Shown piece by piece: positions 11,789 to 49,886 of a DNA stretch of 64,000 nucleotides. Below the pieces are notes generated by a model. It was given only the letters and a program-made list of their open reading frames with translations, was not told where the DNA came from and did not search any database. The DNA lies in assembly GCA_031412295.1 (NCBI GenBank), contig JANOCU010000032.1, positions 66,956 to 130,955 of the forward strand. Direction: 5' to 3'. The stretch is from Bacteroidota bacterium (GTDB lineage Bacteria; Bacteroidota; Bacteroidia; Palsa-965). The position numbers and the translations under genes were made by a program. The stretch's first letter is position 1, and each line of letters starts with the position of its first letter.

Positions 11789-11820
11789 TGCCAAAAGGAC
11801 CTCCGGTAACCGAAACAAAA

Positions 11821-11891: not shown

Positions 11892-11964
11892 CAAAGTCTG
11901 CCGAAGTTTAACATAGTCAGACAAGAATCGCCGGTCAGGCAAAGGCAGGCAAAAAACAAAAGCA

Positions 11965-18100: not shown

Positions 18101-19046
18101 CAAAGAAGAGGTAGTTGAAAAAGGAACAAAGTTCACCGGAAAAGTGCTTGAAAAAATCGATTTCGCTAACGTAAATCCATCTAAATGGACAAACGATAAC
18201 GACACTAACGATCTTGTAAAAGCAGTGCTTCACAACTTCAACATCAAGAACAATGATCTTGGTGGTGTGTACAAGCGTAAGAAATTCGCTTTACAGGTTG
18301 GTGATGAATTGCCAGCAGGAATTGTTCAGCTTGCTAAAGTTTACATCGCGAAAAAACGTAAGCTGAAAGTGGGAGATAAAATGGCCGGCCGTCACGGAAA
18401 CAAAGGTATCGTTGCGCGTATTGTACGTGATGAAGATATGCCGTTCCTTGATGATGGATCGACTGTGGATATCGTCCTCAATCCGCTTGGTGTACCATCG
18501 CGTATGAACCTTGGACAGATCTATGAAACTGTACTTGGCTGGGCCGGTATGAAGCTTGGTTTGAAATTCGGCACGCCGATTTTCGACGGAGCAACTATTG
18601 ACGAGATTAATGCATACACTGATAAAGCTGGTCTGCCACGTTTTGGCCGTACCTTCTTAACAGACGGCGGATCGGGAGAACCTTTCGATCAACCGGCTAC
18701 TGTTGGTGTGATTTACATGCTGAAGCTCGGTCACATGGTTGACGACAAAATGCACGCACGTTCAATCGGACCATACTCGCTCATCACTCAGCAGCCGCTT
18801 GGTGGTAAGGCACAGTTCGGTGGTCAGCGTTTCGGAGAGATGGAAGTTTGGGCACTCGAAGCATTCGGTGCAGCGAACATCCTCCAGGAAATTCTGACAA
18901 TCAAGTCTGATGACGTAGTAGGCCGTGCAAAAGCTTACGAAGCAATTGTTAAGGGTGAGAATATGCCAACACCTGGCATCCCGGAATCATTCAACGTATT
19001 GTTGCATGAGCTTCGCGGTCTTGCGCTCAACGTCAGCCTCGACTAA
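15192..19046 (+). CDS. rpoB: DNA-directed RNA polymerase subunit beta; the start is uncertain, TTG at 15192 or GTG at 15204
   Basis: About 1,280 aa. [48 protein letters not shown] and [18 protein letters not shown] are rpoB motifs. Confidence 0.97.
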
Positions 19047-19094
19047 TTTCAACCGATTCAGTTTTTATTTTCACGAACGAAAACAAAACAAAAC

Positions 19095-27405: not shown

Positions 27406-27614
27406 TGCTGTTGTTTTAAGTAATATTTATTTGCGGAGATTTTATCCTTTCCTCCATCCGTTGATTTAATAATTTCTTTATATGCCTTCCGCTTTGTCCG
27501 GCTTTTGTCCGGCCGGCAGAATAGGCTGGTCCTCCCTTTTGAAATACTTTTGTGCTGATTTTACGAATTTCCCCGGCACCCCATTTTTACCTATTTCCTA
27601 TGTCAAGTGTTTCT

Positions 27615-30600: not shown

Positions 30601-33600
30601 CAACAAATGGTTGTACATCCCCAGTCGGAACTGTTGCTGTTGTTATCAATGCAACACCGGCCGCACCAACTGCTTCAAGCAATTCACCGGTTTGTACAGG
30701 CAATACAATTAATCTTTCAACACCAGTTGTAGCAGGGGCAACCTATTCCTGGACCGGACCAAATTCATTTGCTTCAGCGGTACAAAATCCATCTATTGTA
30801 AATGCAACAGCAGCAATGGCCGGCACTTATAGTGTAACCGTTACTACCACAGGTTGTACTTCGGCAGTCGGAACAGTTGCGGTTGTTGTGAATGCAACTC
30901 CGGCTGCACCAGCGCCATCAAGCAACTCTCCTGTTTGCACCGGAAATACAATCAATCTTTCTACAACAGCAGTAGCAGGCGCAACGTATTCCTGGACCGG
31001 ACCAAATTCATTTGTTTCAGCAGTACAAAATCCATCCATTGTAAATGCAACAGCAGCAATGGCCGGAACATATAGCTTAACTATTACTACAACAGGTTGT
31101 ACTTCGGCAGTCGGAACAATTGCTGTAATTATCAATGCAACTCCTGCTGCACCAACTGCATCAAGCAACTCTCCTGTTTGTAGCGGAAATACAATTAACC
31201 TTTCTACACCTGCCGTTGCAGGCGCGACTTATTCATGGACAGGACCAGCTGCATTTGTTTCTGCAGTTCAGAATCCAACACGCGCAAGCGCAACAGTTGC
31301 AATGTCCGGAACATATAGTGTGACGATTACGACTAACGGATGTACTTCAGCAGTCGGCACAGTTGCAGTAATTGTAAATGCAACACCGTCAACACCTGCG
31401 CCGTCAAGCAATTCACCTGTTTGTATCGGTAACACAATTAACCTTTCTACTGCAGCAGTTGCAGGCGCTACGTATTCATGGACAGGCCCGAACAGTTTTG
31501 TTTCAGCAGTACAAAATCCTTCAATTGTCAACGCAACAGCTGCGATGGCCGGAACATATAGTGTTACGGTAACAACCAATGGCTGTATATCTGCTGTGGG
31601 AACAACAGTGGTAACGATCACTCCGCCGCCAACAACAGCTGCGGCAGGTTCTGATCAGACCATTTGTGTGAACAGCACAACGATGGCTGCAAATGCTCCA
31701 ACAACCGGAACCGGAACATGGACGCAGATCAGCGGACCTGTTACGACAACGATCACTACGCCGTCATCTCCTGTAACAACTATTACGGGAATAACTACAG
31801 CCGGTACATATGTGTTCCAATGGACAATTTCAAATTCACCTTGCACAGCTTCAAGCGATTTAGTTTCCGTTATACTGAACGGAACAACCGCTGCCGCGAA
31901 TGCAGGGACTAATCAGCTGTTGTGCGATGTTACAACTACGGTTATGGCGGCAAATGCTGCTGCGCCGGGTGTTGGTTCATGGACACAAGTAAGCGGTCCG
32001 AATACAGCAACGATCACTTCACCAGCTTCTGAAACCACAACAATGACCGGTCTTATTACTGGTATATATGTTTTCGAATGGACCATTACAAATGCTCCAT
32101 GTCCTGCAACAACGGATAATGTAACAGTTACGATTTCTGCACAACCAACAACATCGTTTGCCGGTCCGGACCAGGCTATATGCAGTTCAGTTGCTTCAAT
32201 GCTTGCAAATACGCCGTCAGTCGGAGCAGGAACCTGGTCGCAGGTAAGTGGTCCGAACACTGCAACAATCACCACTCCAACTTCACCAGCAAGCACAATG
32301 ACCGGTTTAATTGCCGGAACATATGTGTTTGAATGGTCGATTGCAAATGCGCCTTGCGTTCAGTCGGATGATGTAGTTAGTATTGTTGTGAGCGCGGTTC
32401 CTACCACAGCAAATGCAGGAACTGATCAGACAATTTGTTCTGCTTCTGGTGCTGCTACTATGTCAGGAAATATTCCTGCTACCGGAACAGGTGCATGGAC
32501 GCAGGTAAGCGGACCAGTGAGTGCAACAATTACTTCTCCTTCTTCCGAAGCGACAACAATCACAGGTATGACAACTGCCGGCACCTATGTTTTCGAATGG
32601 AGCATCAGTAACGGTTCTTGTGCAGCTTCAAACGATTCAGTTAGTGTTATTGTAAATAATCCTCCGACAGTCGCCGCAGCTGGAAATAATCAATCGTTGT
32701 GTAATGTTACAACTGCTCTGATGAACGGAAATACTGCTGTGAACGGAACCGGTAACTGGACACAAATAAGCGGTCCGAATACAGCAACCATCACAACTCC
32801 TTCTTCTGAAGGAACAACAATGACAGGACTCATTGCAGGCACTTATGTATTTGAATGGACAATTTCCAATTCACCTTGTGCTGCTACAACTTCACAAGTA
32901 CAAGTTGACATTTTCGATTTGCCGACAACTTCAAATGCAGGCCCTGATACATCAATTTGCGCAGCAGCCGCTTCTACAACGATGAACGCGAATGCTGCAA
33001 CAACAGGAACAGGAAACTGGTCACAGGTGAGCGGTCCTTCAACAGCAGCGATTACAAATCCTGCTTCCCCGGTTACAACAGTTACCGGAATGGTTGCCGC
33101 AGGAACATATGTTTTCCAATGGGAAATCAGCAATGGTGTTTGTGCAGTGAGCGCTGATAGCATGCAGGTTATTGTAGCTGATCCGCCGACAACTTCCAGC
33201 GCAGGTGCTGATCAAACATTGTGTAACAGCGCAGCCGCTACAATGGGTGCAAATACTGCCGGAACAGGAACAGGTGCATGGACACAAATCAGCGGACCAA
33301 ACACCGCAACAATTACTTCACCGGCTTTCGAATCTACATCGGTGACAGGACTTATTGCAGGAACATATTTATTTGAATGGACAATTACCAGCGGCGCTTG
33401 CACACCAAGTTCCGACACAATACAAATTACAATTGATGATCTGCCAACAGCTTCGAACGCAGGTGCTGATCAGCAAATTTGTAATGCAACTGCAATAACG
33501 ATGGCTGCTAATATTCCATCAACAGGAACAGGAATGTGGTCGCAGTTGAGTGGTCCGAATACAGCGATAATTTCTTCACCATCTTCTGAAGCTACAACGA

Positions 33601-35813
33601 TCACAGGATTAACTTCCGGTGCTTACGTATTCGTTTGGTCGATAACGAATGGTGTTTGTGCTGTAAGTACTGACAGTGTGAATGTGATCGTTGATCCGTT
33701 ACCAACAACAGCATCAGCAGGGCCTGATCAATTGAGCATTTGTCCGCCGGTAACAACGATGACTGCGAATGTTCCAACAGAAGGAACAGGAATGTGGTCA
33801 CAACTAAGTGGTCCGAATACAGCGACCATCACCACACCGAATTCTGCAACGACAACAATTTCTTCGATCACATCAGGAACGTATGATTTTGTATGGACGA
33901 TCAGCAGCGGTGTTTGTGCTTCAAGCGCAGATACAATTCAAGTTGTTGTTATTCCATGTGATTCCGACGGTGATGGTGTTGCTGATCTCACAGAAGTTTC
34001 CGACGGAACAAATCCAAATGACCCATGCGATTATCTCACAGCAAGTGTGAATTTAATCCAGGGTGGTCTTTGGAATCTTGCGGATTGTGATGGTGATGGT
34101 GTGACGAACGGAACTGAGATCACTGACGGAACAAATCCAAATGATCCGTGTGATCATCTTGTTGCAAACATTACTTTATCGCAAGGCGGAAATTGGAATA
34201 CTGCAGATTGTGATAACGATGGTGTAACAAACGGAACAGAAATTGTTGACGGAACAAATCCATCTGATCCTTGCGATTATATTGCTGCAAACATGACGCT
34301 TCCACAAGGAGCAACCTGGAATGTGGCTGATTGTGATGGTGACGGAGTAATCAACGGAACAGAAGTAGCTGATGGAACAAATCCGAATAATCCTTGCGAT
34401 TATCTTACCGCCAATATTACATTATCACAAGGCGGAAACTGGAATGTTGCGGATTGTGACGGTGATGGTGTAATCAACGGAACAGAAATTACTGACGGAA
34501 CAAACCCGAATAATCCATGTGAATATCTTGCTGCGAATATTACTTTATCGCAAGGCGGAAACTGGAATGCTGCGGATTGCGACGGTGATGGTGTGACGAA
34601 CGGAACTGAAATTGCTGATGGAACAAATCCGAATAATCCATGCGAATATCTTGCTGTAAATATTACTTTATCACAAGGTGGAAATTGGAATGCTGCAGAT
34701 TGTGATGGAGATGGTGTGATCAACGGAACAGAAATTATTGACGGAACAAATCCGAATAATCCATGCGATTATTTGACAGCAAGCATGACATTGCCACAAA
34801 CAGGAAATTGGAATGTTGCGGATTGTGATGGTGATGGTGTAACAAACGGAACGGAGATCGTTGATGGAACAAACACAACTGATCCATGCGATTATCTTAC
34901 TGCAAACGTTACACTTCCGCAAGGAGGAAATTGGAATACGGTTGATTGTGACGGTGACGGTGTAACAAACGGAACTGAAATTGTTGACGGAACAAATCCA
35001 AACAATCCATGCGATTATCTTCTTGCAAATGTTACGCTTACTCCGGGTGGAAATTGGAATGCTGCAGATTGCGATGGTGATGGTGTGATCAACGGAACAG
35101 AAGTAGTTGACGGAACAAATGCAACTGATCCATGCGATTACTTAGCTGCAAACATGACGCTGCCACAAACCGGAAGCTGGAATGTTGCAGATTGTGATGG
35201 CGACGGAGTAACAAACGGAACAGAAGTAACCGACGGAACAAATACAAATGATCCATGCGATTACCTTGCTGCGAATGTTACGCTTCCACAAGGCGGAAAC
35301 TGGAACATTGTTGATTGCGATGGTGACGGTGTAACCAACGGAACTGAAATCGCTGACGGAACAAATCCGGATGCACCATGTGATCTCTTGCTTGCAAGTC
35401 AAACGCTTCCGCCAAATGCTGCGTGGAATGCATTGGATTGTGATGCTGACGGAATTACCAACGGCGTAGAAATTACCAATGGAAATAATCCATTAGATCC
35501 TTGCGATCCGAATGCATGCGACCTCATTATTCCTGAAGGATTCTCGCCGAACGGAGATGGCATCAATGATATTTTCGAGATCAAAGGAATTTCTGCTTAT
35601 CCGAATAATACAGTAACCATGTTTAACCGCTGGGGTAACTTAGTTTACAAAGCTGCCGGTTATGACAATGGTTCTGTGAGCTGGGATGCAACCAACCAGG
35701 GCGAGCTTAGCACCGGTTCCGGTCCATTACCGGAAGGAACTTATTTCTACGTCATCGATCTCGGTGATGGAAGCCCGATACGTTCCGGTTATGTATTTGT
35801 AAATCGTCAATAA
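27615..35813 (+). CDS. Giant cell-surface adhesin of about 2,730 aa with a type-B T9SS C-terminal domain (gliding-motility-associated CTD); SprB-like
   Basis: The signal peptide is MKNRLFTIVLVLFSTAVFAQ. An N-terminal globular region includes a DUF11-like segment, GDILEYTIVGKNIGSDPSVNTYITDTL. The first array is 11 x 80-aa Cys-containing beta-sandwich repeats (PVCTGNTINLST...ATYSWTGP...AGTYSVTVTTNGCTSAVGT). The second array is 9 x about 86-aa repeats (AGxDQxIC...GTGxWxQxSGP...GTYVFEWTIxNxxC). The third array is 12.5 x 42-aa Asp-rich thrombospondin-type-3-like Ca-binding repeats (DCDGDGVTNGTEIxDGTNPNxPCDY...). The C-terminus reads IPEGFSPNGDGINDIFEI...MFNRWGNLVY...GTYFYVIDL, which is the type-B sorting domain. 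The true start is likely the internal Met at 27615 rather than 27552. Confidence 0.9.
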   Translation: MKNRLFTIVLVLFSTAVFAQVITPFSIRYQTTQKGGIRYLSNTSVTCSGVGCGAGRSEVPPAGTSTDNGFTAAYVDIDADGTTFSSSSDSLALPTCSEISWAGLYWGGEMTNAGANYATRNQVKLKTNNGSYVNLTADALQDNAVGFSTYHCYKDITAIMQAGGTNARYTIANVAARIGGTNRFGGWSIVIVYKNDLQPMRNLTVFNGLSNVSGANPISDITVSGFLTPLSGPVTFEVGNITYDGDRSSTGDQLMFNGGSGFVNILDAVNPTNDIFNSTYSYNGVQKVTPFINPGYTNSLGYDADIFLPNNAAKNFIGNSATSATLRLTTGGETFLTQVVTMAIDVYEPDLRAACRVVDLNGGSVLPGDILEYTIVGKNIGSDPSVNTYITDTLEYNSVYIPGSLSILSGPNAGLKTDAAGDDQAEYITASRTVKVRIGTGANAVSGGQVNNSPLGIDSTQIRFRTMATTDCIVLQCDNIINNRAYIFGTGNVSGNNFNNGSNPNIFDGNGCPVPGTTNTPISAASCTPPSSSSNSPVCTGSTLSLTTSPSSSIATYSWTGPGGFVSTAANPNRANATAAMAGTYTCVITIPGSACSFTVTTTVVINTRPATPAPSSNTPVCSGNTINLSTAAVAGATYSWTGPSAFASALQNPTRPAATVAMSGTYSVTVTANGCTSAVGTTVVIVNSTPATPAPSSNTPACTGNTINLSTAAVAGATYSWTGPNSFASAVQNPSIVNATPAMAGTYSVTVTTNGCTSAVGTTAVVVNATPATPAPSSNTPVCTGNTINLSTVAVAGATYSWTGPNSFASAVQNPSIVNATAAMAGTYSLTVTTNGCTSAVGTTVLVINTTPATPAPSSNTPVCTGNTINLSTAAVAGATYSWTGPNSFASAVQNPAIVNATTAMAGTYSVVVTANGCSSAVGTTAVVVNSTPAAPAPSSNSPVCTGNTINLSTAAVAGATYSWTGPAAFVSAVQNPTRAGATAAMAGTYSVTITTNGCTSPVGTVAVVINATPAAPTASSNSPVCTGNTINLSTPVVAGATYSWTGPNSFASAVQNPSIVNATAAMAGTYSVTVTTTGCTSAVGTVAVVVNATPAAPAPSSNSPVCTGNTINLSTTAVAGATYSWTGPNSFVSAVQNPSIVNATAAMAGTYSLTITTTGCTSAVGTIAVIINATPAAPTASSNSPVCSGNTINLSTPAVAGATYSWTGPAAFVSAVQNPTRASATVAMSGTYSVTITTNGCTSAVGTVAVIVNATPSTPAPSSNSPVCIGNTINLSTAAVAGATYSWTGPNSFVSAVQNPSIVNATAAMAGTYSVTVTTNGCISAVGTTVVTITPPPTTAAAGSDQTICVNSTTMAANAPTTGTGTWTQISGPVTTTITTPSSPVTTITGITTAGTYVFQWTISNSPCTASSDLVSVILNGTTAAANAGTNQLLCDVTTTVMAANAAAPGVGSWTQVSGPNTATITSPASETTTMTGLITGIYVFEWTITNAPCPATTDNVTVTISAQPTTSFAGPDQAICSSVASMLANTPSVGAGTWSQVSGPNTATITTPTSPASTMTGLIAGTYVFEWSIANAPCVQSDDVVSIVVSAVPTTANAGTDQTICSASGAATMSGNIPATGTGAWTQVSGPVSATITSPSSEATTITGMTTAGTYVFEWSISNGSCAASNDSVSVIVNNPPTVAAAGNNQSLCNVTTALMNGNTAVNGTGNWTQISGPNTATITTPSSEGTTMTGLIAGTYVFEWTISNSPCAATTSQVQVDIFDLPTTSNAGPDTSICAAAASTTMNANAATTGTGNWSQVSGPSTAAITNPASPVTTVTGMVAAGTYVFQWEISNGVCAVSADSMQVIVADPPTTSSAGADQTLCNSAAATMGANTAGTGTGAWTQISGPNTATITSPAFESTSVTGLIAGTYLFEWTITSGACTPSSDTIQITIDDLPTASNAGADQQICNATAITMAANIPSTGTGMWSQLSGPNTAIISSPSSEATTITGLTSGAYVFVWSITNGVCAVSTDSVNVIVDPLPTTASAGPDQLSICPPVTTMTANVPTEGTGMWSQLSGPNTATITTPNSATTTISSITSGTYDFVWTISSGVCASSADTIQVVVIPCDSDGDGVADLTEVSDGTNPNDPCDYLTASVNLIQGGLWNLADCDGDGVTNGTEITDGTNPNDPCDHLVANITLSQGGNWNTADCDNDGVTNGTEIVDGTNPSDPCDYIAANMTLPQGATWNVADCDGDGVINGTEVADGTNPNNPCDYLTANITLSQGGNWNVADCDGDGVINGTEITDGTNPNNPCEYLAANITLSQGGNWNAADCDGDGVTNGTEIADGTNPNNPCEYLAVNITLSQGGNWNAADCDGDGVINGTEIIDGTNPNNPCDYLTASMTLPQTGNWNVADCDGDGVTNGTEIVDGTNTTDPCDYLTANVTLPQGGNWNTVDCDGDGVTNGTEIVDGTNPNNPCDYLLANVTLTPGGNWNAADCDGDGVINGTEVVDGTNATDPCDYLAANMTLPQTGSWNVADCDGDGVTNGTEVTDGTNTNDPCDYLAANVTLPQGGNWNIVDCDGDGVTNGTEIADGTNPDAPCDLLLASQTLPPNAAWNALDCDADGITNGVEITNGNNPLDPCDPNACDLIIPEGFSPNGDGINDIFEIKGISAYPNNTVTMFNRWGNLVYKAAGYDNGSVSWDATNQGELSTGSGPLPEGTYFYVIDLGDGSPIRSGYVFVNRQ
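29190..31630 (+). repeat. In-frame tandem array of about 11 copies of a 240-nt unit, up to about 90% identical
   Basis: For example, the units at 29449 and 29689 are near-identical, as are units at 240-nt spacing throughout. Confidence 0.85.
31621..33950 (+). repeat. In-frame tandem array of about 9 copies of an approximately 258-nt unit
   Basis: The protein-level motif PTTxxAGxDQxIC...GTYVFEWxI recurs with this period. Confidence 0.8.
33957..35520 (+). repeat. In-frame tandem array of about 12.5 copies of a 126-nt unit encoding DCDGDGVTNGTE... Ca-binding-type repeats
   Basis: GATTGTGATGGTGATGGTGT recurs every 126 nt. Confidence 0.85.
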
Positions 35814-40474: not shown

Positions 40475-42637
40475 TTATTTCCCTCTTATCAGCTGAACAA
40501 ATCCTGTTGCTGTTTCTTTCAGGTTGACTCCGCTGAGAATATAATAGTACGTTCCGTCAACACAATCTGCGCCGCTTCCGTTTTTCTTTCCGTTCCAGTC
40601 ATTGAGATAATTTCCATTCTCATAAACCAGCGCGCCCCAGCGATCATAAACCTGAAGCGCAGTATTCGGATAAAATTCAAGATTTTTGAAAATCAGCAAA
40701 TCATTTGTCGCATCGCCATTCGGTGTAAATACATTCGGCGCTTCTACATTGCGTGGCAAAACAATTACATCCGAACACGCAGTATCAATACAACCTGCAT
40801 TGCTCGTGGTAATAACACAAACACGATATGTTCCTCCAACCGGGTATGAATGTGAAGGATTTTGTAACGTGGATGTATTTCCATCGCCGAAATTCCACAA
40901 CCACGAAGAAACTCCGCCTGTCGACAAATCTGTAAAATAATACGAGCTGTCGGCGAAAATCACCGTTGGCAAATACGAAAACAACGCAACCGGCAAAGGA
41001 GAAATTGTTACAGTAGCAATGTCAACATCCGTACAGCCGATCGCATTCGTAACAGTACATGTATAGGTTGTGGTAACAGTTGGTGTAGCAATAGGATTTT
41101 GAATGTTTGGATTATTCAAACCCGCAGTCGGCGTCCATGAATAAGAAACACCGCCTGTCGCTGTGAGTGTTGCGCTTTGCCCAAGACAAATTGTTGTATC
41201 CGGACCTGCATTTGCAAGAGTGAATTGCACTGTTACTACAACCGGTTCCGATGCAGCGCAGGTTCCGTTTGATGCAGTAACCACGTAGGTTGTTGTCACC
41301 GCAGGGGTCGCCACCGGGTTAGAGATATTCGGATTATTTAAACCTGTTGCCGGTGACCAGGAATATGCTGTTGCTCCGTTAGCAAATAGAGTTGCCGATG
41401 AGCCTGCACAAATACTTGTATCGTTGCTCGCAGTAATCACAGGCGAAGGCAATACAACAACCACGATCGGAATAGATGTTACACCCGAGGGAACGCCGTT
41501 GTCAGTTGCTGTAATGATAATTGTATTCGTTCCCTGGTTAGCTGCGGATGCAACAAAATAGGCGACAAGTGTTGCAGTATTTCCCGGCGTATTGCTCGTT
41601 TGAAAATAACCGGTCGTTCCGGTAGTGTCAATTGTGATGACCGTATTTTGTATTGCTTCCGGTGCGAAAAAAGAAACGTTCAACGGAAGTGTATCGCCGA
41701 TGCACAGATAAAGTGTATCACAAACTGCAATTCCTGATGCAGTAGGCGGAACGTTGTTTGAATTTCCACAAGCATCAAAAAGAAATGTTTGATTATCGAG
41801 CCAGTCAATTCCGCTGCCGCCAACCTGCGGACCATTATAAACTCCACCCGGCTGATTGAATGCGCCGAATTGAATGTAATCAACTCCATTTCCCTGGTTG
41901 GCACCAACAACTGCATCAGAGCCACCAAAACCATTTACACCACCTGAAGCATCACCGGTAGTCCATTGCATGTCCTTGTAACAAAACGCAACATTACCAC
42001 CCGGAACAATCGGATCACTTCCATTGGTAATAATTACCTGGAACGTATTCAGCTTATCTGTGTATGCAGAAAAATAACCTACACTATCCCATTGCACGAT
42101 CATGTAAGTAGGTGTGATCTTGTAATGAGGAAGTCCGCTCAGCACACCACGCGTGTCTACATCGGCCCAGAAAGGCGCAACCATTACAAATGAATTATTC
42201 GGAAATCCTGTAGCAGTAAATGTTCCATACGGCGCACCGAAAGAAATATTTCCATTGTTATTGATGTAGCAATCCGTCCACGTTTGACCATAAAGACAAA
42301 AGCTGAACGGAAGAGGAATAAGCGGTGAAGAAAGATCGTCGTTGCGATATTCAGGAGGAAGTGCGCCGGTCATCGGAACAATATCCCAGGTGGAATCGCG
42401 CGTTTGCCAGCACTGGCAGCTTGAAGTGGCAGGTTTTACCGGAACGTTGGGGGAAATGCGAAAAGCAGGCTGTGTTTTTGGCGATGCCGTAACAGGCGCA
42501 TTTTTTGCTTTCCCGTTCAACGTACCTTCTTTTTTTGCTTTTTCCCATTGCGATGGTGTCAGCGATGGTGCCTGGCCAAATGCAAAAAAATAGCATAACA
42601 AGCAGGAAACTGCTGTCAGAAGTAGTTTTGTTTTCAT
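40475..42637 (-). CDS. Secreted multi-domain protein with a type-B T9SS C-terminal domain
   Basis: 720 aa. The signal peptide is MKTKLLLTAVSCLLCYFFAFGQ. Internal 60 to 80-aa Cys-containing repeats (SICAGSSATLFANGATAYSWSPATGLNNPNISNP...TTTYVVTASNGTCAA, twice) resemble the first repeat class of the giant adhesin. A PKD-like segment reads GDGNTSTLQNPSHSYPVGGTYRVCV. The C-terminus PNVFTPNGDATNDLLIF...VYDRWGALVY...GTYYYIL is the type-B CTD. Confidence 0.8.
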   Translation of the reverse strand: MKTKLLLTAVSCLLCYFFAFGQAPSLTPSQWEKAKKEGTLNGKAKNAPVTASPKTQPAFRISPNVPVKPATSSCQCWQTRDSTWDIVPMTGALPPEYRNDDLSSPLIPLPFSFCLYGQTWTDCYINNNGNISFGAPYGTFTATGFPNNSFVMVAPFWADVDTRGVLSGLPHYKITPTYMIVQWDSVGYFSAYTDKLNTFQVIITNGSDPIVPGGNVAFCYKDMQWTTGDASGGVNGFGGSDAVVGANQGNGVDYIQFGAFNQPGGVYNGPQVGGSGIDWLDNQTFLFDACGNSNNVPPTASGIAVCDTLYLCIGDTLPLNVSFFAPEAIQNTVITIDTTGTTGYFQTSNTPGNTATLVAYFVASAANQGTNTIIITATDNGVPSGVTSIPIVVVVLPSPVITASNDTSICAGSSATLFANGATAYSWSPATGLNNPNISNPVATPAVTTTYVVTASNGTCAASEPVVVTVQFTLANAGPDTTICLGQSATLTATGGVSYSWTPTAGLNNPNIQNPIATPTVTTTYTCTVTNAIGCTDVDIATVTISPLPVALFSYLPTVIFADSSYYFTDLSTGGVSSWLWNFGDGNTSTLQNPSHSYPVGGTYRVCVITTSNAGCIDTACSDVIVLPRNVEAPNVFTPNGDATNDLLIFKNLEFYPNTALQVYDRWGALVYENGNYLNDWNGKKNGSGADCVDGTYYYILSGVNLKETATGFVQLIRGK

Positions 42638-42776: not shown

Positions 42777-45152
42777 TTAATCCATCGTCTTCCTGTTGAA
42801 TATAATATATCCGAAATTAAACAACAGGCTGAATGGTTGTTGTCGCGGACTATAATAATTCAGGCTCAGGCTTAATGGTCCGAGTGGAGAATGCCATACA
42901 AATGCAGTCATTGCCATAGACTGCAATGTTTTTATGTATTGAAAATTAAAAGCCGGCGGCACCGCGTAAGAAGCAGTGAGATTTGCATTCTGAACAATTT
43001 TCTCATATGGAGCGAAAATGTAACCTTCAATTCTCCATTCAATATTTTTTGCAAGAACAAAAATGCTTTTTAATCCCATTCCTAAAAACTGGTGTGCGCG
43101 GAAATCAGGAATGAAATACGTTTTACTTTCCGGTGTTGGTTCAAATGCCGGGGCATTCAACATCGTGGAAATATAATTATGAAAGAACGGCTGATCCTGG
43201 AATGGCTGTGTCGAATAAACAAGCTCCGCGAGGTAACCTAAACGCCATCTTCCTCTTTCTTTAAAGTACGTATCGTATGTTAAACGAAATTGCAGCCAGT
43301 TATGAATGCCGCGAAAATTTTCATCTACGATTGCAGTTGTCCCCGGACGATAAAACTCTTCACCCTGGACAAATCGTGCGCGGATGGCAAAATAAGTACC
43401 GGAGGACGCGAATTGTTTTCTGTTTAACGTATTTCGCTCATACAAAAAGTGAGTAGTGATGAGATTGAAATCAGTAATATCAGCAACATCGGAAGAGCTG
43501 AAAATATCTGTCTGGTAGTATAAATTTCTATTCGCTGCAAAACCGGTTCCGATCACGAATCGGCCTTTGTTACGGACCGGGAATCCCGCATCAACTTCTG
43601 CGAAACGATCAATATTAACAAGGAACGGTGGTTTTGTATCGGAGAAAAATGCAGGGCTGCTGCGGTAATAATCCCAGCGATTCCACGTAACAATCGGCTC
43701 AAGGTAAAATGGAAGACGAAAAGGAAAATCGATACGCGCTCTTACTTGTGCTCCGCTGTAAAGTTTTCCGAAGTAACCATTCCCGCTGACAGAAATAGAT
43801 GGATTGCTGAGAAAATTATAGCGGAAACCAACAAATCCCATATTGATCGGGCGGTTCGAAAAATTACCACCGAAAGAAGTGGAAACATTTTTCTCTTTTT
43901 TGATCGTCAGCTTCAAATCATAATAACCCGTGGTTTTATTGTAATGCGCTTTCGGGAAAATGGTTTTTATTTTATCATCTGCGGCAAGACGGAAATAGCC
44001 GGGCTTCAAATCTTCAATGGCAACATATTTTTCACGATGACGAAGCAAACGCGAAACATATGCAACCTGACGTTTTTTTAATCCCGTTCCTTCAATGGTA
44101 ATATTATCAAAAACAATTTTCGGCTGCTTCGCGATGAACGCTGCACGACCCGCTGCAAGCTGCGCAGGATCACTTCTCCGCACAACCGACATTTTGATCG
44201 TATCCATCTTCCGCATAGTAGCAACGTAACCACTATCAATTATTCGTTGTGCATTTACGAAATCAAAAAGTCCGAGCCAGTCCGCATCAGGTTCAATAAT
44301 AATTCCGTTTTCACATTGTGCATCGAATGTTGTTTTGCTCGTAAGCATCGCGCGTATTTGTGAAATAAGATTGTCTTCATCCGGATTTTGAAATTCAGAT
44401 GCAACATTGCTTCCGATGATAAAGTCAGGAAAGAAATCCTGGTACATGATATTCGCCGGAAAATTATTGTACAAACCTCCGTCATACAAAAGTTTCCCAT
44501 TTACGCTGATCGGTTTCAAATAGAACGGATAAGACATCGAAGCGCGCAATGCTTCACCTAGATCTCCTTCTTTAAAAACAACAGATTGTTTTGCCGCAAC
44601 ATCTGAAGCCACACAACGGAACGGAATAAAAAGACTGTCGAAATTGTAATTTGCTGCCGCTGCTGCTGCGGCCGTGCGTTCCATCAATGCAAAATCAAGC
44701 TGCACAGGAGAAATTAAATTCGTCGGAAGATTGGATGAAAGTGCAGTATCAAGATTCAGCTTGAAGGTTACCCATGAAGCATCGTCTTCTTTTTTCTTGA
44801 AATAATAAATATTATCAGGACGAACACTTCCCGTTGCCCAGCTTAAAAACTCTTCTGATTTCACCAACGTTTCAATTTCAGTCGGCGTCAAACCTTCTGC
44901 ATAAAGGCAGCCGATCAAAGCGCCCATTGAAGTTCCGCAGATATAATCGATTGGAATATTATTTTCTTCCAGCGCTTTTAAAACACCGATGTGCGCAAGC
45001 CCTGAAGCACCACCGCCGCTAAGCACAACTCCCACCTTTTCACCCGTATATTGGACCGGCCCCACCTGTACAGGTGCACGATCAATAACCTGTGCCTTTA
45101 ATGAAAAGCAGAAGAGGAGGGAAAGAAACAAAACCGAAATCCGCCGGATCAT
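42777..45152 (-). CDS. Patatin-like phospholipase fused to an Omp85/surface-antigen-type beta-barrel, PlpD-like
   Basis: The signal peptide is MIRRISVLFLSLLFCFSLKAQ. The patatin motifs GVVLSGGGASG and GTSMGA (GxSxG) are present. About 450 aa of C-terminal, beta-strand-rich sequence ends in an aromatic residue. The start is assigned to the internal Met at 45152. Confidence 0.7.
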   Translation of the reverse strand: MIRRISVLFLSLLFCFSLKAQVIDRAPVQVGPVQYTGEKVGVVLSGGGASGLAHIGVLKALEENNIPIDYICGTSMGALIGCLYAEGLTPTEIETLVKSEEFLSWATGSVRPDNIYYFKKKEDDASWVTFKLNLDTALSSNLPTNLISPVQLDFALMERTAAAAAAANYNFDSLFIPFRCVASDVAAKQSVVFKEGDLGEALRASMSYPFYLKPISVNGKLLYDGGLYNNFPANIMYQDFFPDFIIGSNVASEFQNPDEDNLISQIRAMLTSKTTFDAQCENGIIIEPDADWLGLFDFVNAQRIIDSGYVATMRKMDTIKMSVVRRSDPAQLAAGRAAFIAKQPKIVFDNITIEGTGLKKRQVAYVSRLLRHREKYVAIEDLKPGYFRLAADDKIKTIFPKAHYNKTTGYYDLKLTIKKEKNVSTSFGGNFSNRPINMGFVGFRYNFLSNPSISVSGNGYFGKLYSGAQVRARIDFPFRLPFYLEPIVTWNRWDYYRSSPAFFSDTKPPFLVNIDRFAEVDAGFPVRNKGRFVIGTGFAANRNLYYQTDIFSSSDVADITDFNLITTHFLYERNTLNRKQFASSGTYFAIRARFVQGEEFYRPGTTAIVDENFRGIHNWLQFRLTYDTYFKERGRWRLGYLAELVYSTQPFQDQPFFHNYISTMLNAPAFEPTPESKTYFIPDFRAHQFLGMGLKSIFVLAKNIEWRIEGYIFAPYEKIVQNANLTASYAVPPAFNFQYIKTLQSMAMTAFVWHSPLGPLSLSLNYYSPRQQPFSLLFNFGYIIFNRKTMD

Positions 45153-45205
45153 GGGGTGATTTTGAATGATTGGTAAAGGTACATAATCCCCCGCTACAGG
45201 AAATC

Positions 45206-46018
45206 TCAATGTAAAGACGAAAGCAATTCAAAAAAGTAGCCGGGAGATTTCAGCAATCTTGTGCCGTACCAGGAAAATAATTCTCCGTCTACCAATAACA
45301 CCTGCGTACCGGGACAAACTTCATGCAGCAGCTCAATGTGTTTTTCCCGAAAAGGATAAGGTTCTGATGACAGAAAAATAACATCAGGCTTTTCTGCTGC
45401 CAGCTCTTCCAGCGTTATTTCAGGATAACGCATTTGGGCGAAAATATTTTCAAGTCCGCAAATGCCCAGCATATGGTCAATGAACGTATCGCCACCTGCA
45501 ACCATCCAGGGCGATTTCCAGATAAAATAGGCAACACGTTTTTTGGGAAATTTATTGATCTGTTTGCGGAGTTTGGAAAATCGTTTTTCAATTTCCCCGG
45601 CTAATTCTTCCGACCTTTCGTTTTTCCCTGTCAGCTCACCAATGCGTCGAATCATATCACAAGCATCACCAAGCGTTTTGATGTCGCTCATCCACACACA
45701 TTTTGTTTTTATCAGCTCTTCAACCTGGCCCTTTTCATTTTCTTCTTTATTGCCAATGATAAGATCCGGTTTGAGCGATTTGATCTTATCCAGCTCCAAT
45801 GTTTTTGTTCCACCGATCCTTTCTTTGGTTCGAAACCAATCCATCGGGTAAATACAAAACTTAGTGATCCCGATCACTTCTTTTTCTAAACCTAAATCTG
45901 CCAACAATTCTGTTTGTGAAGGAACAAGAGAAATTATCCGCCCGGGTAAACCCTGTAACGTAATTTCTCTCTGCATCTGATCCTTAAATTTCATATTGCA
46001 AAGATGAATTGATTCCAA
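45206..46018 (-). CDS. Periplasmic-binding-protein fold of the BtuF / Fe-siderophore / TroA-like class (cobalamin- or chelate-binding)
   Basis: 270 aa. GRIISLVPSQTELLADLGL...KPDLIIGNKEENE matches BtuF-like proteins. No clear signal peptide is seen. Confidence 0.55.
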   Translation of the reverse strand: MESIHLCNMKFKDQMQREITLQGLPGRIISLVPSQTELLADLGLEKEVIGITKFCIYPMDWFRTKERIGGTKTLELDKIKSLKPDLIIGNKEENEKGQVEELIKTKCVWMSDIKTLGDACDMIRRIGELTGKNERSEELAGEIEKRFSKLRKQINKFPKKRVAYFIWKSPWMVAGGDTFIDHMLGICGLENIFAQMRYPEITLEELAAEKPDVIFLSSEPYPFREKHIELLHEVCPGTQVLLVDGELFSWYGTRLLKSPGYFFELLSSLH

Positions 46019-46339
46019 TCAACTCCCAAAGAAAAGCAGTAGGAAAAAATTTAATAAATATGAATTGTTCAATTACACTTTATGGATGTAGCCTTGAAAG
46101 ACTATGATGAAATTCTTCTACCTGGAGTTTAAGCTGGCAGGAATTTTCTTCCTGTCAGTATCATTTCCTTCATATTGATGAGCAAGTAGAACCGCGATAC
46201 TAATAAAAATTTATTGTGGAATGCTATTGTTAAATGTAGATTCTTGTCCACATGAATTTCACAAAACACCAGCACGATACAATGAGATACCGGATGGTAT
46301 AGCGTTTGTTGCTTTAGTATAATTAAAACTCGAAAAGAT

Positions 46340-47656
46340 ATGAGAAACCAACGATCAAACGGAAGCTCTTCTTCACAAAACAGTGAAAGAGGTTCACATG
46401 GCCAGGACAAAAGCCATGGCAACAGAAATACCTATTCCAATTCATTCGGTAATTCAAGACAAGAAAGGAATTCACATAGCGGGTACAATGAAAATGATCA
46501 GCGCAGTTCACGTTATGGTTCGAACAATGAAACAGGTCAGTACAGAAGAGATGAAAATCCGCGCGGACGTTCTATTGACCAGGACGACCGAAATAACAGG
46601 AATAATAATTCGCGTAATTCAGAACACGGCAACTCACGCGGCGGATCAAATCAAAATGATAATCGCAGCTCACGAAATAATTCAACGAATGCAGGTTCCG
46701 CTTCCCGGAATTCTCAGGGTGGACAGGGGAATTCACGCAGTCGCTACCAGCGCGATGACGATACTAATAGTGCACGCTATAACTCATCATCCGGTTCAGG
46801 TAATTCTTCCGGCAGGGGAGGAAATCAACGCGACGAGCGCAGCGCACGATATGGCAATGCAGGGAATTCCGGTCAATACGGAAATCAAGGTGGCGGACGT
46901 TACGACAGTGATTTGAGCTCACGTCGCAGCTTCAATGATTTTGAAGATGATGATCGTGAATCAAGAGAAGAAGATTTCGATTCCTTCTATGAAAATGATT
47001 CACGCAGTCACGCATTCGATAGGAATTCGCAGAATCGTTCCGGCCAGGGAAACAATCGCAATTCCTCCTACAACGATCATGATGCGCGCGGCTCATATGA
47101 TGACGACGATGATGACGATTTCGAAGACGATATCGAGAATGAATACGAAGATGATTCAGACGACGAGCAATCCGGCCACGGATATTCATCACGGGGAAAT
47201 AATTCGCACGGTAACAATTCTTATGGAAGAGAAAATTCATCGCGTGGAAATAATTCGGGCTCATCATATGAAAGAGAAAATTCATCGCGAGGAAATAATT
47301 CCGGTTCATACTACGGAGGCGGCAATTTTTCACGAAATAATTCGGGTTCATCGTACGGCGGAGAAAACAATTCACGTGGAAATAATTCCGGCTCATCATA
47401 TGGAAGAGAAAATACATCCCGCGGAAATAATAATCCCGGTTCATCCTACGGAGGAGGAAATAATTCGCGCGGAAATAATTCCGGTTCATCTTATCGTGGA
47501 GAAAGCTTTTCAGGAAAGGGCTTTTATGCCACTCCCGACGAACAAACCGGCGTAAGCAATTCAAATTTGTCAGGAGGAGATTATGATGATGACAGCTCCT
47601 CTAACGGCAGCCAACACACCGGCTCCCGCAACTCCCGCTCAACACGAGAGTGGTAG
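46340..47656 (+). CDS. Low-complexity N/S/G/R-rich intrinsically disordered protein with an acidic core; hydrophilin-like
   Basis: 438-aa ORF. The acidic block is DDDDDDDFEDDIENEYEDDSDDEQ. It is followed by degenerate 15-aa repeats such as SSYGRENSSRGNNSG. A perfect terminator hairpin lies 25 nt downstream. Alternative-frame ORFs in the same region are likely repeat artefacts. Confidence 0.5.
   Translation: MRNQRSNGSSSSQNSERGSHGQDKSHGNRNTYSNSFGNSRQERNSHSGYNENDQRSSRYGSNNETGQYRRDENPRGRSIDQDDRNNRNNNSRNSEHGNSRGGSNQNDNRSSRNNSTNAGSASRNSQGGQGNSRSRYQRDDDTNSARYNSSSGSGNSSGRGGNQRDERSARYGNAGNSGQYGNQGGGRYDSDLSSRRSFNDFEDDDRESREEDFDSFYENDSRSHAFDRNSQNRSGQGNNRNSSYNDHDARGSYDDDDDDDFEDDIENEYEDDSDDEQSGHGYSSRGNNSHGNNSYGRENSSRGNNSGSSYERENSSRGNNSGSYYGGGNFSRNNSGSSYGGENNSRGNNSGSSYGRENTSRGNNNPGSSYGGGNNSRGNNSGSSYRGESFSGKGFYATPDEQTGVSNSNLSGGDYDDDSSSNGSQHTGSRNSRSTREW
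47185..47520 (+). repeat. Degenerate 45-nt tandem repeats, about 7 copies, inside the low-complexity ORF
   Basis: The peptide period RGNNSGSSYGRENSS is repeated. Confidence 0.6.
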
Positions 47657-47680
47657 AAAATTAAAATTCGTCATATAAAA

Positions 47681-47716
47681 AGAGACGGCAGGAATTTTTT
47701 CCTGCCGTCTCTTTTT
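47681..47716 (+). terminator. Rho-independent terminator
   Basis: AGAGACGGCAGG, loop AATTTTTT, then CCTGCCGTCTCT followed by TTTTT. Confidence 0.75.
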
Positions 47717-47730
47717 AATTCAATCGCTAC

Positions 47731-47775
47731 CTTTTGTCAGACTGAGTAACGAAGTGTATCGAAGGCTGACAAAAG
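47731..47775. repeat. Palindromic repeat element, copy 1 (45 nt)
   Basis: CTTTTGTCAG, then ACTGAGTAACGAAGTGTATCGAAGG, then CTGACAAAAG. Confidence 0.8.
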
Positions 47776-47789
47776 ATAGAGATTGAATG

Positions 47790-48096
47790 TTATTTCTTTT
47801 TGGCCCTTGGCTTCTTCTTTGAAAGGGCAGGTAATTTTTCTTCTTGTCCATTAATTAACGCTTCCTTTTTTGCACGCGACCACCCCTTAAGTTGTTTCTC
47901 ACGTGCAATAGCAAGATTTACATATTTAAAATCTTCCCACCAAACTAAATGAACCGGCCTGCGATCTGCAGTATTACGAACCTTCATTAATTCCTTCCTC
48001 ATGCTGTTCAAATCTCAGGTCAAGATTATTCGTCATTCCAACATAATAAGAATCAGCAGCGCAAAGTAAAATGTAAGTAAAGTAACGATCTTTCAT
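47790..48096 (-). pseudogene. GIY-YIG nuclease-family small protein gene disrupted by a frameshift
   Basis: The N-terminal part runs 48096 to 47974 and reads MKDRYFTYILLCAADSYYVGMTNNLDLRFEQHEEGINEGS then stop. The C-terminal part is in another frame and reads ...KVRNTADRRPVHLVWWEDFKYVNLAIAREKQLKGWSRAKKEALING. Together they match the about 100-aa GIY-YIG family, whose typical sequence is Y.YIL...G..YIG.T.DL.RR..EHN.G...YT...RPW.LVY.E.F.....A..RE.Q.KGWSR.KK. The frames differ by one nt near 47975..48000. Confidence 0.6.
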
Positions 48097-48252
48097 AGCT
48101 TATAATTAACAATCATTTATCAGACGAATTAACGAAAAGTTTCAAAACAAATAAATGCTTTAAGAAATCATTCTTCGTTTTTTTTCTCAGACTAAGCTGT
48201 GAAAATTATCGAATACGGCTAAATAATATCAATGAAGAGAATCCCTAAATTC

Positions 48253-48277
48253 CTTTTGTCAGACTGAGTAGCGAGTA
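48253..48277. repeat. Palindromic repeat element, truncated copy (left arm and part of the loop)
   Basis: CTTTTGTCAGACTGAGTAGCGAG, then divergent sequence. Its upstream flank AATAATATCAATGAAGAGAATCCCTAAATTCC resembles the flank of copy 4 (AATAGTATCAATGAAGAAGTTCACATAGTAGC). Confidence 0.6.
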
Positions 48278-48318
48278 ACAACGAATCAAATCAAATAATT
48301 CCAAGAAAATGTCCCCAC

Positions 48319-48373
48319 AGTTCCTTTTGTCAGACTGAGTAGCGAAGCGTATCGAAGGCTGACAAAAGGAACT
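48319..48373. repeat. Palindromic repeat element, copy 3, with an extended stem
   Basis: AGTTCC-CTTTTGTCAG-ACTGAGTAGCGAAGCGTATCGAAGG-CTGACAAAAG-GGAACT. Confidence 0.8.
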
Positions 48374-48454
48374 AGCGCAATATTACTTTTTGTCACCGTG
48401 AATATCAAAGTTGCCCGAAGAGCACCAAATAGTATCAATGAAGAAGTTCACATA

Positions 48455-48507
48455 GTAGCTTTTGTCAGACTGAGTAGCGAAGCGTATCGAAGGCTGACAA
48501 AAGCTAC
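48455..48507. repeat. Palindromic repeat element, copy 4, with an extended stem; it abuts the stop codon of the CBS gene
   Basis: GTAGC-CTTTTGTCAG-ACTGAGTAGCGAAGCGTATCGAAGG-CTGACAAAAG-GCTAC. The 45-nt core is identical to copy 3, but the flanking 5 to 6 nt differ and remain complementary. Confidence 0.8.
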
Positions 48508-49886
48508 TAGCACAACGCCTTTATTATATCATGCCGCGTAATAATAAAATTCGAATCCGTTTTAAAATCCCTCACCAGCACAGCAGGATTTTCAGGCGTG
48601 ATCATCGACGCGAGCGATTCAACAGGAGTAGAAATATCCACGAATGGAAAAGCCGCCTGCATGATCGTTTCAACAGCATCCGATTTTTTATCCGGATTTT
48701 TCACAAGACTGTCGAACAATTGCATTTCGTTTATCGATCCCACAATTCTTCCGCCGTTTGTTACAGGCATTTGAGAAAAATCATTTTCACGCATTATTTT
48801 CACCGCGCGTTCTATCGGCTCAGTACATTCAATCGCTTTTAAAGTTCCGCCTTTGATCGTCGATACCACATCTTTCGCAGTCTGACCTTTCGGCTCAAAA
48901 AATCCTTTCTCACGCATCCAGTCGTCGTTGAACATTTTTCCAAGGTAACGTGTACCGTGATCATGGAAAATTACAACAGCCAGGTCACCTTCTTTCAGCT
49001 GCGCTGCCAATTGAACAACACCCGCCATTGCAGAACCTGCAGAATTCCCTGCAAAAATTCCTTCTTCTTTCGAAATGCGGCGTGTCATCACAGCAGCATC
49101 TTTATCCGTTACTTTTTCAAACAAATCAATAATGCTGAAGTCAACATTCTGCGGCAAAAAATCTTCCCCGATTCCTTCTGTGATGTAAGGGTAAATTTCA
49201 TTCTTATCGAAAATGCCGGTCTCTTTATATTTTTTGAAAATAGATCCGTACGTATCAATTCCCCAGCATTTAATATTCGGATTTTTCTCTTTCAGATATT
49301 TTCCTGTTCCGCAAATTGTTCCGCCCGTTCCAACGCCAACAATCAAATGCGTAATTTTTCCTTCCGTCTGTTCCCAAATTTCCGGACCCGTTTGCTCATA
49401 ATGCGCCTGCGAATTCGAAAGATTATCATACTGGTTTGGCTTCCACGAATTCGGAACTTCTTTTATCAAACGTGAAGAAACAGAATAATAAGAACGCGGA
49501 TCTTCCGGATCAACGTTGGTCGGACAAACAATTACTTCCGCACCAAAAGCCTTCAGCGCATCCACTTTTTCTTTCGACTGTTTATCAGTAGTAGTAAAAA
49601 TGCATTTGTAACCCTTAATGATCGCCGCAATCGCCAACCCCATTCCTGTATTACCCGAAGTGCCTTCAATAATTGTTCCTCCCGGCTTCAGTCTTCCGTC
49701 CTTTTCAGCATCCTCAATCATCTTGAGCGCCATTCTGTCTTTAATAGAATTACCCGGATTAAAAGTTTCAATCTTGGCGTAAACTTTCGCTTTCGTCAGC
49801 CCTTTGGTAAGGTTATTAATACGCACCAGCGGAGTATTTCCGATTGTACCGAGAACGTTGTCGTAAACTTGTTTGGAAGGATTCAC
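48507..49886 (-). CDS. Cystathionine beta-synthase-like enzyme: PLP-dependent cysteine-synthase fold plus a C-terminal CBS-domain pair
   Basis: 459 aa. The cysK/CBS catalytic core is GNTPLVRINNL...KIETFNPGNSIKDRMALKMIEDAEKDGRLKPGGTIIEGTSGNTGMGLA. C-terminal tandem CBS domains are present. It probably uses a GTG start. Confidence 0.7.
   Translation of the reverse strand: MNPSKQVYDNVLGTIGNTPLVRINNLTKGLTKAKVYAKIETFNPGNSIKDRMALKMIEDAEKDGRLKPGGTIIEGTSGNTGMGLAIAAIIKGYKCIFTTTDKQSKEKVDALKAFGAEVIVCPTNVDPEDPRSYYSVSSRLIKEVPNSWKPNQYDNLSNSQAHYEQTGPEIWEQTEGKITHLIVGVGTGGTICGTGKYLKEKNPNIKCWGIDTYGSIFKKYKETGIFDKNEIYPYITEGIGEDFLPQNVDFSIIDLFEKVTDKDAAVMTRRISKEEGIFAGNSAGSAMAGVVQLAAQLKEGDLAVVIFHDHGTRYLGKMFNDDWMREKGFFEPKGQTAKDVVSTIKGGTLKAIECTEPIERAVKIMRENDFSQMPVTNGGRIVGSINEMQLFDSLVKNPDKKSDAVETIMQAAFPFVDISTPVESLASMITPENPAVLVRDFKTDSNFIITRHDIIKALC

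Follow-up and report, generated by a model that had tools for sequence, protein, structure and literature searches.

The KGG/YciG general stress proteins (Pfam PF10685), with E. coli YciG and B. subtilis GsiB as the named short members, are motif-bearing hydrophilins that are thought to act by bulk physical chemistry. In eukaryotes, the FUS-family and RGG proteins combine a low-complexity palette of Ser, Tyr, Gly, Asn/Gln and Arg with an RRM or a zinc finger and with RGG boxes. Hydrophilins as a class are set by composition (Garay-Arroyo et al., 2000, quoted in PMC4190154); the criteria given there are Gly above 6%, a grand average of hydropathy (GRAVY) below -1 and a mean hydrophilicity above 1, and a high Asn+Gln content is given as typical (PMC4190154). 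In Bacteroides thetaiotaomicron, the disordered region of Rho (BtRho) drives RNA-dependent coacervation via short charged motifs and consists of a KE-rich subdomain and an N/Q-rich prion-like subdomain (PMC13269538). Here we describe an open reading frame (ORF) at 46340..47656 of a 64-kb stretch of a Bacteroidota genome (contig JANOCU010000032.1), hereafter the window. A hydrophilin-like reading of its product is reasonable as an analogy, and membership in the LEA, dehydrin, KGG and RGG groups fails. Our results suggest that the ORF is an orphan gene of one narrow Bacteroidia lineage.

The first-pass annotation of this DNA had named a 438-codon, ATG-started frame rich in Asn, Ser, Gly and Arg. 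The frame is real, and the end at 47716 given there takes in a downstream hairpin. Related loci were fetched with the adjacent btuF-like protein as the query, one genome per species, which gave 80 related loci (L-numbered below). In the closest of them (L002), from a Bacteroidia metagenome-assembled genome (MAG), the btuF-like neighbour gene is 94% identical to that of the window, and an ortholog of the ORF lies in the same position and orientation. The two products are 82% identical over 407 aligned residues, with 44 gapped positions and a frame that stays open throughout; MRNQRS at the start and STREW at the end are common to the two. In a frame-blind nucleotide alignment the gap runs were 3, 3, 21, 12 / 3, 87, 3 nt, all seven indels being multiples of 3. 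Substitutions at codon positions 1/2/3 amounted to 9.8/8.8/31.4%, so the outcome that the first pass had set as a refutation, a codon periodicity favouring no frame, did not occur. The Nei-Gojobori ratio of nonsynonymous to synonymous substitution (dN/dS) was 0.156 (bootstrap 95% 0.109-0.215); computed separately for the four segments, N arm, acidic core, repeats and C tail, it ranged from 0.105 (acidic core) to 0.21. The other five frames gave 0.26-1.9. The codon-position and frame tests strongly favour the named frame as the coding one. These comparisons point to purifying selection on all segments, and the ORF is almost certainly a real protein-coding gene.

Selection seems to act on the overall composition and block layout while repeat number drifts, because the counts of Arg (51/50) and Tyr (24/24) are nearly identical in the two orthologs despite 18% divergence, and the repeat arm of L002 is shorter by 29 residues (87 nt, about two units). 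The earlier statement that alternative frames also stay open is only partly right, since 3 stops fall in frame +1 and 4 in frame -2 across the ORF; their near-openness follows from the scarcity of T, which fills only 4% of the second codon positions. An opposite-strand gene was rejected: frame -1 is broken by 22 stops, and the dN/dS of 0.26 obtained for it is no more than the shadow to be expected from the sense frame. A foreign base composition was also rejected, because the GC content (0.457), the GC content at third codon positions (GC3, 0.378) and the synonymous codon use fall within the span shown by the other window genes and are thus host-like. The identical protein was gene-called on an independent Logan assembly contig (L001), and the sightings of the ORF total three, namely the window, one Sequence Read Archive run and one MAG.

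Ser (21.2%), Asn (16.7%), Gly (14.6%) and Arg (11.6%) together make up 64.2% of the product, in line with the roughly 60% estimated earlier, and with Tyr, Asp and Glu they reach 84.7%. By comparison, Ile, Leu, Val, Met, Phe, Trp and Cys sum to 3.9%; Asn+Gln account for 21%, and there are only 2 Lys. The protein contains 51 Arg, 24 Tyr, 12 RG and 20 SR. Its longest hydrophobic run (I/L/V/M/F/W/C/A) is 2 residues, and the best 19-residue Kyte-Doolittle window scores -0.67. Per 25 residues, the net charge is 0 to +2 over aa 1-200 and 276-400, -8 at aa 201-225, -17 at aa 251-275 and -5 at aa 401-425, and the charges are more segregated than in shuffled sequences (z = 3.6). The product is thus a blocky polyampholyte in which weakly basic R/S/N/G arms with scattered Tyr surround two strongly acidic blocks. 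The main block had been described as about 25 consecutive acidic residues; instead, it has 18 D/E in 26 residues (aa 253-278), with DDDDDDD as the longest pure run. The count of around seven degenerate 15-residue repeats was fair: according to Tandem Repeats Finder, 47222-47494 holds 6.1 copies at a period of 45 nt, and at the protein level aa 279-395 contain 5 units above the 95% shuffle threshold and 3 degenerate or partial ones. No other low-complexity hydrophilic segment of this kind occurs in the 64-kb window, which, with the in-frame conservation in L002, speaks against a chance feature.

The product is very probably disordered over its whole length, because hydrophobic residues amount to 4% and AlphaFold2 gives no confident structure. 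The model of the single sequence has a mean predicted local distance difference test (pLDDT) score of 35.9 and no secondary structure, which taken alone is weak evidence, and together with the composition it bears out the disorder predicted in the first pass. No signal peptide or membrane segment is present (N-terminus MRNQRSNGSSSS), and Pfam matches no C-terminal sorting domain (CHU_C or Por) of the type IX secretion system (T9SS). A cytoplasmic location would therefore be expected. The reading as a secreted or T9SS cargo was rejected on the same grounds; a neighbouring gene (40475-42637) does carry CHU_C.

Homolog searches with the product were empty. An exhaustive HMMER phmmer search against 1.84 billion cluster representatives gave 0 matches at E<=0.001. 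This is not an artefact of the bias filter, because in a local phmmer control the product scores 829 bits to itself and 519 bits to its L002 ortholog; both proteins are absent from the collection of 1.84 billion representatives. In a word-indexed homolog search, the 8000 candidates were saturated by low-complexity words and none scored. Pfam returned 0 families even at E<=10, and there was no match in NCBIfam, PADLOC or PHROGs, in two metagenome scans of the Joint Genome Institute (JGI) and one viral scan, in tblastn against plasmids and phages, or among PDB sequences. Remote low-complexity relatives may be hidden by composition correction. To judge from these searches, the product is an orphan without a detectable homolog, restricted to one narrow Bacteroidia lineage.

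Within the same phylum, the long YciG/KGG stress proteins come closest to the product as analogues. When the related loci were scanned for ORFs poor in hydrophobic residues, two further proteins came to light (L040, 15488-16627, and L042, 6110-6949, both on the minus strand), each with a basic S/R/G/N-rich arm, a D/E/Y acidic core and a repeated C-terminal arm, which is also the layout of the ORF product. The L042 protein served as a positive control and matches Pfam KGG ('stress-induced bacterial acidophilic repeat') at E = 4.6e-10, and its relatives (P0001-P0048, 150-410 aa) carry the JGI label 'general stress protein YciG'. The linkers between the motifs of such proteins resemble the whole ORF product, with nearly the same composition. 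In amino-acid composition, the ORF product differs from the 48 YciG/KGG proteins by a median Jensen-Shannon divergence of 0.11 (minimum 0.04), compared with 0.255 for ordinary proteins of the window. Extreme hydrophilicity (family median GRAVY -1.75 vs -2.05), an R/S/G/D/E/Y-rich composition and a near lack of hydrophobic residues are shared; the extreme hydrophilicity and the R/S/G/D/E-rich composition are typical of the family without defining it. However, the defining repeat RGFAxMxxExxxxIAxxGGxASHGG is missing, the repeat unit GSSYGRENSSRGNNS is unrelated to that of the family, and Asn is five times more frequent (16.7% vs 3.4%). Family membership was rejected, since the motif is missing and Pfam, phmmer, corrected BLASTP and hhalign are negative. 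By analogy, the product may function as a KGG-type hydrophilin made of 'linker' alone would, and has at least the build of one, without being a member of the family.

Against the hydrophilin criteria as quoted in PMC4190154, the Gly content of 14.6% exceeds 6%, and the GRAVY of -2.05, found in both the window protein and its L002 ortholog, is below -1; the Asn+Gln content is also hydrophilin-like. In contrast, the product is much longer than typical microbial hydrophilins. LEA or dehydrin membership (K-segment, 11-mer repeats and the like) was rejected on the empty Pfam result. The resemblance to hydrophilin, LEA, dehydrin and RG proteins seen in the first pass thus stands for Gly content and hydropathy and falls for LEA, dehydrin and KGG membership. 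Its comparison with RGG-type RNA chaperones does not hold, because only two isolated RGG triplets occur (aa 100-102 and 159-161, about 59 residues apart), which form no di- or tri-RGG box, and the 12 RG are dispersed; the RGG/RG-motif RNA-binding class was rejected. With the FUS family the product shares the Ser, Tyr, Gly, Asn/Gln and Arg palette, and SYG triplets recur in its repeats, but it has just 5 [GS]Y[GS] motifs and large acidic blocks, and it lacks RGG boxes, an RRM and a zinc finger. A FUS-like prion-like domain was rejected on the 5 motifs and on the aromatic spacing, which is not even. BtRho belongs to the same phylum and has long disorder, N/Q-rich parts and short high-charge stretches of both signs, with composition kept more than sequence or length. 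However, its disordered region is a Lys/Glu-rich insertion in an essential folded enzyme, whereas the ORF product stands alone, uses Arg (2 Lys) and has no catalytic domain.

We put at about an even chance the reading, drawn by analogy, that the product is a young, orphan, cytoplasmic disordered polyampholyte that acts as a stress protectant and/or a coacervating protein; a hydrophilin-type stress function taken by itself is held somewhat more tentatively. We infer from the sequence that the ORF is expressed and that its product is cytoplasmic, has a role in stress and condenses, its function being read from composition only. The product would most likely work via bulk physical chemistry, like the YciG/GsiB/KGG hydrophilins. 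When present in quantity during water limitation or starvation, it would bind water and sterically shield other macromolecules. The Arg/Tyr arms might interact with the protein's own acidic blocks or with RNA, and the protein might condense (coacervate) on a change of ionic strength, pH or crowding. Self-association or coacervation with RNA is suggested because the weakly basic Arg/Tyr arms adjoin dense acidic blocks, and BtRho provides a precedent in the phylum for coacervation through charged motifs (PMC13269538).

Several results weigh against this stress-protectant or coacervating reading. Neither Pfam nor NCBIfam assigns the product to KGG or another stress-protein family. BLASTP with comp_based_stats 2 and phmmer find no similarity to KGG-type proteins, and hhalign aligns just 19 acidic columns with them at 35% probability. 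The Hopp-Woods mean hydrophilicity is 0.68, below the value of 1 in the third hydrophilin criterion as quoted in PMC4190154, the choice of scale being our assumption. The aromatic residues are no more evenly spaced than in shuffled sequences (coefficient of variation 0.95 vs 0.92), and charged and aromatic residues are conserved at 81%, compared with 84% for Ser, Asn and Gly (p = 0.58). A sticker-and-spacer grammar is not specifically supported, because the spacing is random-like, the stickers are no better conserved and RGG boxes are lacking. A consensus scan upstream of the ORF found no sigma-70-type or Bacteroidetes TAnnTTTG promoter motif, and the single-sequence structure model adds little by itself. 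Only two orthologs are known, so the selection analysis is one pairwise comparison, in which the ORF has a dS of 0.68 (0.68-0.80 in three of the four segments), compared with 0.29 for each of the two flanking genes, a 2.3-fold difference. The high dS may come partly from alignment uncertainty in low-complexity sequence. Other possible causes are faster mutation or conversion of low-complexity DNA, weaker selection on codons, or a recombination event in which the island was replaced from a more distant strain. The dN of the ORF is 4 to 12 times that of the neighbour genes, the dN/dS of the flanking patatin gene having been taken from an ungapped nucleotide alignment with L002.

The ORF came with, or arose in, an insertion of 2.5 kb that also bears GIY-YIG/REP-like elements and lies at a site of recurrent insertion (REP, repetitive extragenic palindrome; Table 1). 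In the next closest genome (L003), whose cystathionine-beta-synthase-type (CBS), patatin and btuF-like proteins are 96%, 89% and 75% identical to those of the window, the CBS and btuF-like genes are 157-178 nt apart and the entire insertion is missing. The 2.49 kb form a lineage-specific insertion, because the similarity to L003 stops at both edges, at the CBS stop (48508) and at about 46023-46062 near the btuF start. CBS lies upstream of btuF in 33 of the 80 related loci, with a gap of 5-200 nt in many and patatin usually next, so that the insertion splits an otherwise conserved CBS-btuF-patatin cluster. Other Bacteroidota lineages carry different inserts at the same junction, which therefore looks like a recurrent insertion site. 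These include RAYT/IS200-like Y1 transposases (MPLRYRKHIRLPDHDY...) in L018, L021, L027 and L058, a TPR-SpoIIE phosphatase protein in L004 (7509-9980), and a gene pair of 842 and 183 aa in L013 and L034 (about 6900-10000).

Within the insertion, one frameshift divides a small gene for a GIY-YIG nuclease. Its N-terminal 40 codons (MKDRYFTYILLCAADSYYVGMTNNLDLRFEQHEEGINEGS*) are in one frame and its C-terminal part is a 73-aa ORF in another, for which Pfam reports GIY-YIG at E = 1.2e-4. A 44-nt palindrome (TTTTGTCAGCCTTCGATACGCTTCGCTACTCAGTCTGACAAAAG; TTTTGTCAGCC...GTCTGACAAAAG) is present in three copies at the sides of this gene; no copy was found elsewhere in the window and none in 81 loci. 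Both short ORF-bearing contigs (L001 and L002) stop just past the ORF hairpin and before the palindrome, and this position of the breaks suggests that the palindrome is multi-copy in the two genomes. A GIY-YIG/palindrome association analogous to REP/RAYT is possible.

An extended version of the polyampholyte reading would join these elements to the protein. In it, the gene would be a very young orphan that arose in, or came via, a GIY-YIG/REP-type insertion, partly by expansion of the 45-nt repeat, and would already be under purifying selection, and its product would be an autonomous, self-regulated condensate scaffold, a stand-alone 'all-linker' protein that lacks motifs and has Arg/Tyr arms set against auto-inhibitory acidic blocks. 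We regard this version as decidedly unlikely. If true, the ORF would offer a natural, minimal system in which to follow phase separation in bacteria and the birth of a disordered protein.

The composition also invites the explanation that the product is an RNA-binding disordered protein, either an RNA chaperone or an RNA-protein condensate scaffold, that regulates RNA metabolism instead of giving general stress protection. The numerous Arg, RG, SR and Tyr (51, 12, 20 and 24) are in keeping with it, and the acidic blocks could auto-inhibit the basic arms, as in the disordered region of BtRho (PMC13269538). However, Pfam finds no RRM, KH, cold-shock or other RNA-binding domain, the two distant RGG triplets make no box, the net charge is -13 at a pI of 5.3, and the arms carry just +0 to +2 per 25 residues, which leaves this explanation unlikely. 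Alternatively, the product could be a highly diverged KGG/YciG/GsiB member that has lost the KGG motif, and thus be homologous and not only analogous to that family, with a function that would overlap with the stress-hydrophilin explanation. The very similar composition and block layout, the alike N-termini (MRNQRSNGSSSSQNSERG in the ORF vs MENRRNGRSSSSSSNGSRG in P0009) and the long, low-identity alignments given by uncorrected BLASTP speak for it. Since this similarity is gone under composition correction (BLASTP with comp_based_stats 2, phmmer), while the hhalign alignment is confined to acidic columns, Pfam KGG is unmatched at E<=10 and the Asn contents are far apart, we consider homology improbable.

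An equally slim chance is left for an ORF carried as cargo by a mobile or selfish insertion, where it would serve in conflict (for example, as an acidic nucleic-acid mimic or in anti-defence) or be a neutral passenger. Such an origin agrees with the lineage-specific insertion and its GIY-YIG nuclease gene and REP-like palindromes, with the other inserts at the same junction, including RAYT-like transposases, and with the fast evolution of the ORF (dN 4 to 12 times that of the neighbours). On the other side, the phage, plasmid, viral-contig, PHROGs and PADLOC searches were all empty, GC, GC3 and codon use match the host, purifying selection is seen on all segments, and the ORF is intact while the GIY-YIG gene has decayed. 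Next to no probability remains for a non-coding, microsatellite-like repeat with an accidentally open frame. The low-complexity DNA, the two other nearly open frames and the lack of database homologs would fit a repeat of this kind, which is contradicted by the frame-specific dN/dS of 0.16, the 3-nt periodicity of substitutions, the in-frame state of 7/7 indels and the start codon and C-terminus kept in L002; on dN/dS, codon-position substitutions and in-frame indels it was rejected.

Table 1. Coordinates of the ORF, its segments, the elements of the insertion and the neighbouring genes in the window.
Feature	Position	Strand	Remarks
T9SS cargo protein gene	40475-42637	-	upstream neighbour; CHU_C domain
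Patatin-like gene	42777-45209	-	upstream neighbour
Periplasmic-binding-protein (btuF-like) gene	45206-46018	-	upstream neighbour
Lineage-specific insertion, ~2.49 kb	46019..48506		between btuF-like start and CBS stop; holds the ORF and other elements
Upstream hairpin CTGGCAGGAATTTTCTTCCTGTCAG	46133..46158	+	core GGCAGGAATTTT..TTCCTG common to downstream hairpin; kept in L002
Upstream block	46224..46252	+	29/29 identical with L002 in the intergenic alignment; single occurrence in window
Second upstream block GATGGTATAGCGTTTGTTGC	46296..46315	+	19/20 with L002; 25 nt before ATG
Coding sequence of the ORF	46340..47656	+	ATG start, 438 codons + TAG; 438 aa, 48 kDa, pI 5.3, net charge -13, GRAVY -2.05
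N-terminal arm, aa 1-198	46340..46933	+	R/S/N/G/Q-rich, scattered Y; net 0 to +2 per 25 aa; dN/dS 0.19
Acidic core, aa 199-278	46934..47173	+	two D/E/F/Y blocks (aa 201-225, aa 251-275) with a short basic linker between them
Repeat arm, aa 279-395	47174..47524	+	about six full and two partial copies of GSSYG(R/G)ENSSRGNNS; 45-nt period
C-terminal tail, aa 396-438	47525..47653	+	non-repetitive; KGFYATPDEQTGVSNSNLSGGDYDDDSSS...STREW; small acidic patch (aa 401-425, net -5); kept in L002; dN/dS 0.21
Perfect 19-bp hairpin, 4-nt loop	47676..47717		arms 47676-47694 / 47699-47717; starts 20 nt past ORF stop; A run and T run at flanks
REP-like palindrome copy 1	47718..47788, 44-nt core 47731-47774	-	26-nt arms; directly past GIY-YIG stop; -29.4 kcal/mol, z = -8.5
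Small GIY-YIG nuclease gene, split by one frameshift	47790..48096	-	pseudogene or assembly error
REP-like palindrome fragment	near 48262-48290		partial copy
REP-like palindrome copy 2	48324..48367	-	44-nt palindrome match
REP-like palindrome copy 3	48459..48502	-	44-nt palindrome match; abuts CBS stop codon
Cystathionine-beta-synthase-type gene (PALP + CBS)	48507-49886	-	downstream neighbour

Two conserved upstream blocks, the lack of any same-strand neighbour gene and a strong predicted terminator hairpin are consistent with a transcription unit of its own for the ORF. The block at 46224..46252 is a candidate promoter or operator element. The terminator hairpin noted in the first pass is present and has a T run, although its arms are 19 bp and not 12 bp long and it begins 20 nt and not 25 nt past the stop. 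It folds at -31.9 kcal/mol (z = -8.8 vs shuffles) and is followed by TTTTTAATT, and its 5' arm is present at the L002 contig end. As in intrinsic terminators, a stable G+C-containing stem-loop with a T run lies just past the stop codon; a simple terminator scan did not list it. The terminator shape is bidirectional, because the upstream A run pairs with the downstream T run, and the hairpin could thus be an intrinsic-terminator-like element usable from either strand. The 56-nt stretch around the upstream hairpin (46120-46175) folds at -20.3 kcal/mol (z = -5.2), and direct-repeat family D6 ties this hairpin to 47687-47698; it may be an insulating terminator or a remnant. The btuF-ORF intergenic region measures 321 nt in the window vs 616 nt in L002, which has about 300 extra nt beside btuF (window 46019-46131 region); the similarity resumes at the upstream hairpin (46133). 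Rfam gave only sub-threshold chance matches on the ORF locus, and no tRNAs were found near it.

The first pass had also called such a protein unusual next to housekeeping genes. This has to be qualified, as the ORF lies in a lineage-specific insertion at an insert-prone junction, and long YciG/KGG proteins of very similar composition occur in other Bacteroidota. Elsewhere in the window, a housekeeping cluster (9813-11892 / 15192-23390) comprises tRNA-Thr/Tyr/Gly/Thr, a 395-aa ORF (probably EF-Tu) and tRNA-Trp, followed by two tandem, very long ORFs of 1284 and 1431 aa whose size and position fit rpoB and rpoC. A further ORF, of 2753 aa, occupies 27552-35813.

Little work has been done on bacterial proteins of this size that stand alone and are fully disordered, and homology-based annotation misses them; here selection can be demonstrated despite the lack of a homolog. 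The gain of the ORF is placed on a short branch, since it occurs in two close genomes and is missing at the syntenic site of the next relative (L003). Its product shows convergence in composition with the YciG/KGG proteins but lacks the one motif conserved in that family. If the product protects cells or condenses, the low-complexity KGG linkers, and not the KGG motif alone, would carry the function, and the ORF would provide a compact model of how stress triggers coacervation in Bacteroidota. Even without any measurable effect, it would remain a clear case of a lineage-restricted gene that evolves fast at an insertion hot spot. The ORF offers a clean, testable example of a young stand-alone disordered protein.

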